Below are positions 34,101-40,100 of a DNA stretch of 64,000 nt, in pieces. Where the stretch lies: NCBI RefSeq assembly GCF_044647545.1, contig NZ_CP172818.1; one strand, written 5' to 3'. A program made the position numbers. Within the stretch, counting starts at the first letter, position 1. Each line of letters opens with the position of its first letter. This DNA comes from Escherichia coli (GTDB lineage Bacteria > Pseudomonadota > Gammaproteobacteria > Enterobacterales > Enterobacteriaceae).

Positions 34101-37100
34101 GGCACCAATAAAAAGTGGTCTGAAGATCACGCCCATCGTGTGCTAAAAAGTCTTGAAGATAATCTTTTTGCAGCGCTTGGTGAACGTAATATCGCTGAGT
34201 TAAAAACTCGAGCCCCCCCCCCCTCCAGTGTCTCCCCGTGTGGCCGGGACCCCCCCAAGACCCACAGCTGACCGGGGATGACGTCTCCCCGTTCCCGCCA
34301 GTCCCCCTTCCCTCACCGGCCCCCCCGACTCCCCCCCGCCCGCGAACCCACGCCTGCCGCGAAAACAGGATGAACCCCAAAAGCCGTGAAAGACGGCAAA
34401 AAGGACCCCCCCGCCCGGGGGGGGAGTAAGCGCACCGGCCCGGGCGCGGCGCCCCCCGCAACCGGCGGGGGCCGCCCAGCGCCCGGCGGACTCCCTACAC
34501 CACGACGCCCCGGCGCGGGGGCGCCCCGACGCGAACGGGTGCCGCGACGCCAAACGTCCGGCCCCGACCGCGACGAAAACCGCGACCGCCACGAAACGGC
34601 ACACACAGGCGAAACACAGCGGCCGACGCGGCGCGGACGGGAGGGCGGCCCCGCGGCCGCGGGCACGCACGGGGCACCCGCGCCAACGGAACAGACAGGC
34701 CCGCCCCGACCCCCCCGGGGGCGCGGCGCACCGGGCAGAAACCCCCCCCGGGGGCAACCGAACGCGGGCCGGATCGCAGCCGAACAACGCCCCCCCAACC
34801 CCCCCCCCCCCCGGGTGTTCCTTTAACCATCCGCAATGGCCAACGGTTTACAGAGCATAATACGAATAGCCGTAGAGCCAGCCAGTTACGGTGGTCGCGA
34901 TGGTGTGTCCGCCAGAAAATCACCACGAATACCAGAATCGCGGCACTGACCAGAAAATGATAAACAGGAAACACGGGGAGGTTCACTTTGCTTTCTCCTG
35001 TAGTATTTTCTGTAGGTTCTGAACCGGTTCGAGCGGGGTTGTGAGGCTGATGGCAATCCCCGGGCTCTTCCTGCATGTTACACTGGTACTGCAACAGGGG
35101 GCCTTCGCTCCTATGACATTACTCAGTATTTTCACTACTACACCCCATCTGCCATCCATAACAACCGATTCACCCCCTCGGGAGGCGTTGTTGCCCGTCA
35201 CCCGGACAGGCATCGTTATGGACTTCTCTTGTTGCACGATCGATCAATTGTTATGCATGCTGACACCACTACCCCGGTGGGTATGACCGATGCCTTTCTC
35301 ACTCTCTTCCCGGTCATCGTCGGCCTTCCCCGTTATTGTGGCGTGTCGGCACCATCGACGGCATTTCGATGGCTGCTCAGTGTTCACTCACGTTACGGCC
35401 CGCATAACCCATTGACTTCCTGAAGAAGTCGTTTCAGGGAGAGATTCAGCCCTTTTGTTACCTCCTGGACCGCTTCCTGTCCTTCCAGTTGGAGCGAGAG
35501 TTAGTCGGGGCGGACTTTCACCGACGGAAAGATCGTGCATTTCAAGGCACACACAACAATATCTGCGAGCGTGCTATCCGTCCGGTCGTTATGGGACGAA
35601 AGGCCTGGTTGTTCGCTGGTTCACTGATGGCCGGGAACCGAGCGGCACAGATAATGAGCCTTCTGGAAACAGCAGTCTGGAGCCACATGCTTGGCTGACG
35701 GACGTCCTAACGCGTCTGCCCGGAGTGGCCGGAGGAGAGGTTGGCAGAGTTACTGCCTCTTGAGGGCTTTACCTTCTTTGGGTAAGTGATACCTGCCGTC
35801 AGGTGTTTGTGCACCGGGCCATAACCTGCAGTTGGGAATTGAACGCCTGACAACAGGAAATGAGCTAGAGCAGTAAACACGCGGGCTGACAATGGGTCAG
35901 AATATGAGTCTGCCCGGCGTTATTCTTGGGGTCAGTACTTCAGATCCAGCCTCCGGTACCAGACTAGCTAGCCCCTACGCAACCAAATAAATCAACCATC
36001 GTAAGAGTGCAATCGTTCATATACACTGCCGGTGATGGGCGGAAAAATGCGTTAATGTTGAGTTCCTCGAACCCTTACCAATTAAGGGACATAGCCAGAT
36101 ACGCAACTGGCTGATGCAAGCAGTCTGATGTCTTTAGATTCGCTGGCCTGCGGGCATGACAATGTCAAACAGTCAAAGATTGTGGCGTTGACGGTCAGTC
36201 TCGGTGGTCGAAAAAGCTCAGTATTCTCGTTGGCAACCAGATAATTTAACAGTTGATGCTGAAACGAAATAGGCATCTTGGTTCTGTAATGCCAGTCAGT
36301 TAAGCAACTGACTGGCTCTTTTTCGGGGCTGTGGGGTATTTCCAGGGCCTCTCCTTTACCACTCTCGGGAAGGCCCTTTCCCTTCTTGTCGGTAATTTCA
36401 CAAGTTGTCCCATACTTGCAAGATCGCGCATCAGCTCCGGTATACGTCCCGGTGAAGCGCCCTGCAATGTCATCAGCATTCTCATCACCATTCCGCATGA
36501 TTCTGAGAAACTCAGTTGATTCGGCCAGTAACCTTTCAGATGTTCCGCCATTTTAATCATCTGATATCTCACCAGATTATAAGCCAGTAAGACACCCCGC
36601 AGCTCTTGCTCCACAAGCTCCGGTTTTTTACTTCTCAGCGTCAGCCTGCTCAGTTGCATCGTCTGTTTTATCTCCCTGTATCCCAGTTCGATTTCCCAGC
36701 GATGACTGTACAGATCCGCCATTTCTCCTCCGGGGAAGCGCATGGCGTCCGTCATCGACGTCAGCAGATGGCAGACTTTTCCTTTGCGCGTCACGGTCAG
36801 CAGGCGGGCTGTCACTTCATTTCCCAGTCCCGGCCACTTTTTTCGTGCCTGCGGGCTGGTTTTCAGCTTCACCAGATGATCGCCTTTACCCAGTTTTCTG
36901 ATCTCTTCATATTGCGCTCCCTTTCTGAGAGGTATCATCCAGTGGCGGTGTTCTCCCGCCAGGCTCCAGGCATTTAACAGTCCCAGTGAGTAATAACCTT
37001 TATCCATTAACGTCAGAGTGTTATCGCCGGTTTGTTCTATAAGTTGCTCAGCAAGCTCATTTTCGCTGTTCTTCATCGTGCCGAAGGCTGCAGCCGTCAG

Positions 37101-40100
37101 CAGATGGCTGGTCAGTTCCATCTGGCAGACCATTTTGACCTGCGGGTAGAGCGCCGGGTTCCCGGCATGTGTCTGGCGGGGGAAGGCTGCATCGTTCTCT
37201 GGTGTATCCGGTGTGCGCCAGAACACACCATCGATGGCCAGCAGGGTCAGGCCGCACCAGTGCGGATGCGGCGTGGCGTTATGACAGAGCTGCGCTGTTT
37301 TCGTGAACACGCGGCGGACAGCCTCACTTCCCAGGCGCTGGCGGGCCTGAATAACGGCACTGGGGGCAACGAAGGGGCGATTGCCCGGCAGCATGATGTC
37401 CAGGCGATTCACAATCTGGTGAAGAGGTTCTTTACGCTCAAGCGCCATGCCAACAATACACCAGACCATCATTTCGAGGGGAAGACGGCGCTTGCGTAGC
37501 GTTACAGTACCTGATTCGGCAAGGCAACGAGAGATGAGTTCGGGGTCGAGGTAATCCCCCAGAGAAGTCAGTGGGTTACGCAGAGAATCGTAACGGGATA
37601 CCAGATCAAGAGCCTGTCCAATGTGCATAAAAAAATCCGGAAACAAGTGAGCGTTTCCGGATTCTTACACAGCCACTGGATCGGTCAACTGATCCTTAAC
37701 TGATCGGCATTAATCTTGGTTCTGGTGTTTGTAACAAACTATCAGCTACAAAAATATGCTCAATTTGTGACATCAGTAACAAAACGCGTTTTGTTATGTG
37801 GATTGCTTGTTTTTTGATCTGGTATAACAGGTATAAAGGTATACAGAAAAGCAAAGAAATACTGCAAAGGAAAACAGCTATAACGTAAGCTAAAGTAATA
37901 ACCTCTCAGTCTTTCCTCATTTGACGAAGGGAGTTTTATTCAACCTGAACGGACTACGAAAATGAGCACAATGAATAAGTCAATTTTTGAAGCAGGGTTG
38001 AACTGTGCCAGTGGTGGAATATCTGGCGAACATTGTTTTTTGTTGGTGACCCAAAACTGTAGGTGGGTATCAGTTTTATCTTTCATAGAGTGAAATATGT
38101 TAAGAAGAAATGGAGGAAAAGATTGTACTGATTAGGTATTGATAACAATCAATAGTACTGGCGTATTTGAAGACAATATAATTATTTCTGGATATTGTTG
38201 AGGCTCCCTAATATTTACTTTAAGGGCTATATTAGAATAACACAGGAAACAAATATGGCAACAGCATGGTATAAACAAGTTAATCCACCACAACGGAAAG
38301 CTCTTTTTTCCGCATGGCTTGGATATGTATTTGATGGCTTTGATTTTATGATGATATTTTACATTCTTCATATTATAAAAGCAGATCTTGGCATTACGGA
38401 TATTCAGGCTACTTTAATAGGGACAGTGGCCTTCATAGCCAGACCTATTGGAGGTGGTTTTTTTGGTGCCATGGCTGATAAATATGGTCGTAAGCCAATG
38501 ATGATGTGGGCAATTTTCATTTACTCAGTCGGAACAGGCCTTAGCGGTATTGCTACAAACTTATATATGCTCGCAGTTTGCCGTTTTATTGTTGGCTTAG
38601 GGATGTCTGGTGAATATGCATGTGCTTCAACTTATGCGGTAGAAAGTTGGCCTAAAAATCTTCAATCTAAAGCTAGTGCTTTTTTGGTAAGTGGTTTTTC
38701 TGTTGGAAATATTATTGCGGCACAAATAATCCCTCAGTTTGCTGAAGTATATGGATGGAGAAACTCTTTTTTTATAGGCCTGTTACCAGTTTTACTAGTT
38801 CTTTGGATCAGAAAAAGTGCTCCAGAAAGTCAGGAGTGGATTGAAGATAAATATAAGGATAAATCAACATTTTTGTCTGTCTTCAGAAAACCACATCTTT
38901 CAATCTCTATGATCGTTTTCCTCGTCTGTTTTTGTCTATTTGGTGCAAACTGGCCGATAAACGGACTACTTCCTTCCTACCTGGCAGATAATGGAGTTAA
39001 TACAGTGGTCATTTCAACTCTGATGACAATAGCAGGTTTAGGAACACTGACAGGTACAATATTTTTTGGTTTTGTTGGTGATAAGATTGGTGTAAAAAAA
39101 GCCTTTGTAGTCGGTCTAATAACTTCATTTATTTTCCTTTGTCCTCTTTTTTTTATTTCTGTGAAAAACTCTTCTCTTATAGGATTATGTCTCTTTGGAT
39201 TAATGTTTACAAATTTAGGTATTGCAGGGTTGGTTCCAAAATTTATATATGATTACTTTCCAACAAAATTAAGAGGATTAGGGACCGGTCTTATTTATAA
39301 CTTAGGGGCAACTGGAGGAATGGCCGCACCTGTATTAGCTACATACATTTCAGGATATTATGGCTTAGGTGTTTCATTATTCATTGTTACGGTTGCATTC
39401 TCTGCCTTATTAATTTTGTTAGTTGGTTTTGATATTCCAGGTAAAATTTATAAACTATCCGTGGCTAAATGATTGGAGGCTTTATGATTAATTATGGCGT
39501 TGTTGGTGTTGGATACTTTGGCGCTGAATTAGCTCGTTTTATGAATATGCATGATAATGCAAAAATTACATGTGTATACGATCCTGAAAATGGAGAAAAT
39601 ATTGCCCGTGAATTGCAGTGTATCAATATGTCAAGCTTGGATGCTTTAGTCTCAAGTAAATTAGTCGATTGCGTGATCGTAGCCACCCCAAATTATCTGC
39701 ATAAAGAACCAGTAATTAAAGCAGCAAAGAATAAGAAGCATGTTTTTTGTGAAAAACCAATTGCATTAAGTTATGAAGATTGTGTGGATATGGTCAAAGC
39801 GTGTAAAGAAGCTGGTGTGACCTTTATGGCCGGGCATATTATGAATTTTTTCAATGGGGTTCAATATGCACGGAAGTTAATTAAAGAAGGTGTTATCGGC
39901 GAAATATTATCATGTCATACTAAGAGAAATGGCTGGGAAAACAAACAAGAGAGACTTTCCTGGAAAAAGATGAAAGAACAATCTGGTGGACATCTATATC
40001 ATCATATACATGAGTTAGATTGTGTTCAGCATTTACTTGGAGAAATACCAGAGACGGTTACTATGATTGGTGGAAATTTGGCCCATTCTGGTCCAGGATT

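Follow-up and report, generated by a model that had tools for sequence, protein, structure and literature searches.

The IS4 element upstream of the nanXY (yjhBC) operator of Escherichia coli: a widely shared island insertion outside the conserved promoter module

When an intact insertion sequence ends about one hundred base pairs before the operator of a regulated operon, two questions arise: is the insertion recent, and does it change the control of the genes? Both are raised by a 64,000-nucleotide stretch of an Escherichia coli genome (NCBI RefSeq assembly GCF_044647545.1, contig NZ_CP172818.1; hereafter the window), in which a copy of IS4 precedes the sialic-acid genes nanX and nanY (yjhB and yjhC). 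Judged by its sequence, this insertion is the chromosomal copy of IS4 (insG) already known from the leuX-associated island, named KpLE2 in K-12. It is older than its spread to about 18% of the complete E. coli genomes sequenced. A textbook item of the K-12 map, it has little importance apart from being annotated correctly and is not to be taken as a fresh regulatory mutation.

A first description of the window, made without database searches and called here the sequence-only reading, had proposed an IS4 of exactly 1426 bp with perfect 12-bp target duplications. Both properties were recovered, at 36287-37712 and with 12 of 12 identical positions between the duplication copies. The element is organized as follows.

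36275-36286, no strand: left copy of the target-site duplication, ATCTTGGTTCTG (repeat search; a single copy in empty-site genomes)
36287-37712, minus strand: complete IS4, 1426 bp, 99.6% identical to K-12 IS4 and of equal length
36287-36304: right inverted repeat (IRR) of IS4, at the far end of the element as seen from the transposase start; 18 nt, complementary to 37695-37712 at 89% of positions
36300-37628, minus strand: open reading frame (ORF) of the IS4 transposase InsG, 442 aa from the ATG at 37628 or 448 aa from the TTG at 37646
37631-37666: hairpin with 14-bp arms, inside IS4 directly upstream of the transposase start (repeat search)
37695-37712: left inverted repeat (IRL) of IS4, the end adjoining the transposase start, toward nanX (inverted-repeat search)
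37713-37724, no strand: right copy of the target-site duplication (repeat search)

The two 18-nt termini, TAATGCCAGTCAGTTAAG and CTTAACTGATCGGCATTA, are complementary at 16 of 18 positions and form imperfect terminal inverted repeats. The duplication abuts both ends of the element, and the probability that a 12-nt match would occur by chance at these two fixed positions is about 6e-8. Its length falls within the 11-13 bp range of IS4, which is also the range found at other IS4 copies (for example 12, 12, 11 and 13 bp). The insG ORF is uninterrupted and its product matches the Pfam domains Nterm_IS4 (3e-33) and DDE_Tnp_1 (8e-31); the Y-x2-R-x3-E-x6-K signature can be read directly in the translation. 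Thus, the window element, present in one copy, displays all the testable defining features of IS4, the type element of the IS4 family. Since the IRL faces nanX, the transposase is transcribed away from that gene. A promoter-like site lies on the minus strand at 37688-37661, near the IRL end.

The sequence-only reading had also held the insertion to be probably recent. The window sequence 35275-38725 was compared by BLAST with 5426 complete E. coli genomes. A locus was called occupied when one BLAST place covered at least 80% of the query, because an empty site or an inverted insertion sequence reaches only 59%; empty sites were counted under the rule that flanks 1438 bp apart are not joinable. 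The region upstream of nanX was found in 1133 of the 5426 genomes. IS4 occupies it in the window orientation in 963 genomes (about 85% of the nanXY-bearing genomes and about 18% of the complete ones), and the site is uninterrupted in 169. As 963 and 169 add up to 1132, essentially every nanXY locus is either occupied or empty. K-12 MG1655 and E. coli C carry IS4 at the same site and in the same orientation. The identical duplication was seen in all eight occupied loci inspected, those of K-12, C, FY26, AH50, MMC-J-0066, SCU-387, 2017C-4173W12 and CFSAN064035. A duplication that is perfect in every copy inspected is no sign of recency, and the claim of a recent event has to be abandoned.

Two of these genomes show peculiarities. 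In FY26, the IS4 at the nanX site is 2275 bp long, with about 849 extra internal bases, and is annotated as one 725-aa "IS4 family transposase". AH50 has an empty nanXY locus besides the one that holds IS4, which means that the nanXY island can occur twice per genome.

The identity of the insertion with that of K-12 is detailed. The K-12 insG (b4278), annotated as an "IS4-like element IS4 family transposase", lies directly upstream of yjhB/nanX in the KpLE2/leuX island. It shares with the window the site, the 12-bp duplication, the orientation and the length of 1426 bp, and nanXY, over 4 kb downstream of IS4, is 100% identical. The elements themselves match at 1420 of 1426 positions. Of the six single-nucleotide polymorphisms (SNPs), four are clustered K-12 SNPs that the window lacks and two are proper to the window. 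Copies in IAI39, CE10 and NCTC86 are 99.9% identical to the window IS4. In contrast, the K-12 left flank belongs to a different haplotype from that of the window.

Genomes with an empty site give direct access to the sequence that preceded the insertion. In IAI39, exactly one ATCTTGGTTCTG joins both flanks, and the same is observed in AR_0013, CFSAN061772, FORC 064 and the second nanXY locus of AH50. Removal in silico of IS4 and one duplication copy from the window yields this naturally occurring uninterrupted sequence. The insertion is therefore simple, neither composite nor rearranged, as the sequence-only reading had supposed. The surroundings of the site in the leuX tRNA island, in the order ahr, tRNA-Leu, truncated integrase, mobile-element remnants, IS4, nanX, nanY, include the following features.

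33512-33596: tRNA-Leu of the leuX island
35388-36274: region left of the insertion, mobile debris followed by a non-coding spacer, with no regulator in the annotation
35388-35527, minus strand: group II intron fragment (Rfam RF02003, group-II-D1D4-4, 66 bits, E = 2.8e-13)
about 35555-35785: C-terminal remnant of an IS66-family transposase (from the annotation), adjoining the intron fragment
38255-39472, plus strand: nanX (yjhB), MFS transporter
39484-40602, plus strand: nanY (yjhC), GFO/IDH/MocA oxidoreductase

The left side also contains a phosphoethanolamine-transferase pseudogene and the island integrase, located in 33783-34815 and cut to 162 aa (Arm-DNA-bind_3 and part of Phage_int_M). K-12 has an IS2 and an eptA-like pseudogene on this side. 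The window lacks the IS2, the greater part of the eptA-like pseudogene and the remainder of the K-12 integrase, and has instead about 600 bp absent from both K-12 and IAI39. A step in G+C content (GC) coincides exactly with IS4, from 46-57% on the left to 29-42% on the right. Apart from tRNA-Leu and the group II intron fragment, an Rfam scan of 33000-40000 gave no match, in particular none in the nanX promoter or leader. Hence, what the empty-site comparison places to the left of IS4 is only mobile-element debris, which essentially disposes of the idea that regulatory sequence had been separated from nanXY.

On the right side of IS4, the predicted control elements of nanXY are arranged as follows.

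37747-37843, plus strand: promoter/operator module homologous to the nanC promoter region (the fimB-nanC spacer)
37766-37781, plus strand: CRP-like site TGTGAcatcagTAACA, in agreement with the consensus at 9 of 10 positions; the nanC module has it in the same register
37821-37843, plus strand: predicted NanR operator GGTATAacaGGTATAaaGGTATA, three tandem GGTATA repeats
37844-38254, plus strand: long AT-rich leader, from the operator to the nanX start

By the published definition, an operator of NanR consists of three tandem GGTATA repeats that precede an operon of the sialoregulon (PMC8012715). In the window, these repeats begin at 37821, 37830 and 37838, a tandem pattern expected 0.01 times in shuffled versions of the window. 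The distance of 109 bp from IS4 given in the sequence-only reading is correct when counted from the last base of the element, 37712, to the first base of the operator, 37821 (108 bases lie between them). From the end of IS4 to the CRP-like site downstream there are about 54 bp, or about 60 bp when counted to the centre of the site. A scan of the window with the CRP consensus gave 3 matches where 1.8 were expected, so that the site at 37766 is not significant alone. Its support comes from conservation with nanC rather than from the rarity of the match.

Comparison with nanC helps to delimit the conserved module. The two promoters are homologous over about 95 bp, a stretch that takes in a AAAAATAT box, the CRP-like site and the GGTATA operator; in both, a leader of about 410-420 nt comes next. 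They differ in the number of repeats, about 2.7 for nanC (GGTATAACAGGTATAAAGGTgcg), and in their upstream sequence, which in nanC is unrelated and carries no IS4. In the window the homology covers about 37747-37840, its left limit being 35-38 bp from IS4; positions 35-128, 52-128 and 76-128 of a nanX upstream query match most E. coli genomes in BLAST. As the homology stops 35-38 bp short of the element, IS4 lies just outside the conserved module.

The nanX and nanC leaders show only patchy homology beyond this point. An ATG following GAAA is common to both; in nanX it is at 37962 and opens a 43-codon ORF, and in nanC the ORF has 12 codons. Based on this likeness, the region could be a conserved leader element or a small ORF. 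A "constitutive" promoter predicted by systematic evolution of ligands by exponential enrichment (SELEX), AAGACA-17-TATTGT, also falls in the nanX leader, near 38171-38199 (Shimada 2014). In CFSAN064035, a C-to-T change in the NanR operator, at the equivalent of 37828, turns TATAAC into a perfect TATAAT. A text search of the literature found no transcription start site for yjhB. Kalivoda and colleagues are said to have mapped the yjhBC operator and promoter in 2013.

Does IS4 influence this promoter? The suggestion that it could alter NanR/CRP-dependent control finds no support, as the CRP-like site, the promoter and the operator are all located to the right of the element. In K-12, mutation of nanR derepresses yjhBC, and N-acetylneuraminic acid induces it (Neu5Ac; PMC3658417); strain BW25113 requires both yjhB and yjhC for growth on 2,7-anhydro-Neu5Ac (PMC7535918). 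This K-12 work was all carried out with IS4 present at the site. Furthermore, a PnanX-mVenus reporter placed at attTn7 remains inducible by Neu5Ac at this ectopic site, with the lowest background and the best fold-induction among the NanR promoters tested (bioRxiv 10.1101/2024.10.23.619804). The fragment used in the reporter is equivalent to window positions 37717-38254 (538 bp); it runs from 5 bp beyond IS4 up to the nanX ATG. NanR binding and Neu5Ac-dependent derepression at this locus have been published for K-12 and NGF-1, whose sequences match the window where checked. Since the right flank alone is inducible, sequence on the left side is unnecessary for inducible control. Thus, NanR/Neu5Ac control of nanXY would be left essentially intact by the insertion, with little or no effect. 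IS4 may have a modest quantitative effect on nanXY expression.

It may nevertheless be imagined that IS4 is functionally important, altering expression or shielding the promoter from a position about -110 to -125 relative to it, and that selection explains its presence in 85% of the loci. The occupied allele is indeed very frequent (963 versus 169), the insertion sits exactly at the sharp composition boundary beside a promoter region of 33% GC, and at about 60 bp from the centre of the CRP-like site upstream DNA can still have an influence. However, the right flank alone gives tight and inducible expression, and no outward or hybrid promoter directed from IS4 toward nanX was found on the plus strand; the end of IS4 carries a weak terminator-like hairpin. 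Hitch-hiking on a successful island haplotype would account for the frequency equally well, as the right flanks of occupied loci are nearly invariant. In AH50, both alleles stand side by side. We regard a functional role as unlikely.

Cases where an insertion sequence activates a neighbouring promoter offer a point of comparison. IS5 upstream of glpFK or bglGFB, and IS1 or IS5 upstream of flhDC, are such examples. As in these systems, about 100-130 bp separate the insertion sequence from a CRP-dependent catabolic promoter downstream. The likeness stops there: the nanX promoter functions even when IS4 and the left flank are missing, and the insertion was not selected in the laboratory but is a fixed allele of ancestral origin. 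Published studies of how nanXY/yjhBC is regulated have almost all used the IS4-occupied allele. The roughly 15% of nanXY-bearing strains with an empty site provide a clean natural comparison.

How did the window acquire its copy? The flanking haplotypes are informative in this respect. At position 37926, the window and the seven occupied loci sampled first have G, whereas five empty loci have T. Over the whole collection, exact 31-mer searches returned 920 genomes with G and 208 with T, to be set beside 963 occupied and 169 empty sites; the allele at 37926 tracks occupancy in a strong but incomplete association. Over 1.5 kb, the right flank is near-invariant among the window and the seven occupied loci sampled first. 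From 37285 (IS4 position 999) to about 41300, the window is 100% identical to K-12. On the left, in contrast, the segment 34816-36210 diverges by about 2.8% from K-12 and resembles that of the empty-site strain MS1494, whereas the 76 bp directly adjoining IS4 are of the K-12 type; at 36284, for instance, they have C and MS1494 has G. The window locus is therefore a mosaic, with a left flank of the empty type and a K-12-type sequence from inside IS4 through nanXY. For the core genome (8000-32000), identity to the 5426 complete genomes does not exceed 98.6% in any case; the source lineage is unusual by this measure. With such a core, complete identity to K-12 over 4 kb, in the right part of IS4 and nanXY, argues for recent horizontal acquisition or recombination.

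CFSAN064035 provides a second mixed haplotype. Its flanks are IAI39-like on both sides of an occupied site, yet its IS4 is the K-12-specific allele, and it has the K-12 allele at 36236, 50 bp to the left of IS4. This combination indicates that IS4 was brought in by recombination rather than newly transposed. Considering these data, a single origin of IS4 at the nanX site followed by spread between haplotypes by recombination is, in our opinion, quite probable. The locus would then be an example of an insertion allele passing between island haplotypes through homologous recombination.

The alleles of IS4 itself complicate this picture. The K-12-specific derived SNPs (338C, 366C, 432C and 524A), absent from the window, lie within 186 bp, whereas no SNP is found in the 4 kb of flanking sequence, which suggests gene conversion. 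The pattern suggests that IS4 alleles at the nanX site have been reshuffled in this manner. For the same reason, dating by IS4 SNPs was discarded. Conversely, the window IS4 corresponds to the common E. coli type with two additional changes, G313 and A998 in IS coordinates (36599 and 37284 in the window). Comparison with relatives of 80% identity in Photorhabdus and Rosenbergiella shows both to be derived, and both are non-synonymous, leading to W121C and W350R (448-aa numbering, relative to common E. coli InsG). The same pair is present in an IS4 of strain ST648 at another locus, nested in a second IS4 near raiA. This sharing hints that the IS4 allele encoding W121C and W350R may be mobile.

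Several observations weigh against a single origin. The G313/A998 allele differs from all seven other sampled nanX-site copies and matches the ST648 copy elsewhere; together with the foreign left flank, it could also fit a separate insertion. In addition, about 40 occupied genomes have the "empty-type" T at 37926, one of which, CFSAN064035, was looked at. It may thus be envisaged that an IS4 of the G313/A998 subfamily was inserted independently and fairly recently into an empty, MS1494-like haplotype, the site being a recurrent hot spot. The two derived SNPs, missing from the seven other nanX-site copies, would be explained, as would the empty-site type of the left flank; besides, IS4 has a strong target preference, and the exact combination found in the window occurs in no genome of the collection, the best match over the whole locus being 99.1%. 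Against this, the right flank is identical to K-12 over 4 kb, including the occupancy-linked G at 37926, and the 76 bp adjoining IS4 on the left have C at 36284 where an MS1494-like target would have G. CFSAN064035 illustrates that recombination does carry the insertion between haplotypes, and the clustered K-12-type SNPs suggest a means, gene conversion, by which IS4 alleles may be reshuffled. In all 963 occupied sites, IS4 has one and the same orientation, and, as discussed below, the site fits the target preference of IS4 poorly.

This preference was assessed on 34 independent IS4 insertion sites from other genera, found by a contig scan with the IS4 end. A run of four T located 12-19 nt from the IS4 end is present at 23 of the 34 sites (1.6 expected at random) and palindromic arms at 17 (1.3 at random). 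The targets of IS4 are thus terminator-like hairpins with runs of A and T on their flanks, in agreement with the AAA-N20-TTT target rule of the older literature. The nanX site fits the minimal AAA-N20-TTT pattern, with TTT only and no palindrome. A terminator hairpin at this target was considered and rejected, as the folding of the reconstructed empty site is not superior to that of shuffled sequences (z = -1.6). A weak and atypical target, always entered in one orientation, makes repeated hits unlikely. On balance, an independent recent insertion in the window lineage appears improbable. Lower still stands the proposal that the IS4 allele is favoured, tuning or insulating nanXY at the GC/AT boundary with a divergent transposase promoter, or else that the 12-mer is a hot spot struck independently a second time; this we hold to be very unlikely.

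With a single origin, the history of the locus could be reconstructed as follows. The AT-rich nanXY cassette has the 12-bp target ATCTTGGTTCTG at its left edge; there IS4 would have transposed once, in a cut-and-paste event by which the 12-mer was duplicated. The occupied allele would then have been inherited and moved among E. coli lineages via island transfer and homologous recombination, and the lineage of the window would have acquired an IS4 already sitting at the nanX site. Located outside the conserved promoter module, the element would leave NanR/Neu5Ac control of nanXY essentially unaffected.

Finally, some observations concern IS4 in other genera. The contig scan with the IS4 end returned relatives from other genera and no E. 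coli representative. IS4-like elements with an identical 25-nt terminus are found in Kosakonia, Buttiauxella, Pectobacterium, Photorhabdus, Rosenbergiella and others. A 265-bp contig filed as Methylobacterium mesophilicum NBRC 15688 (NZ_BPQU01000128.1) contains the IS4/nanX junction, the IS4 end followed by ATCTTGGTTCTGGTGTTTGTAAC; contamination of this assembly by E. coli is almost certainly the explanation.

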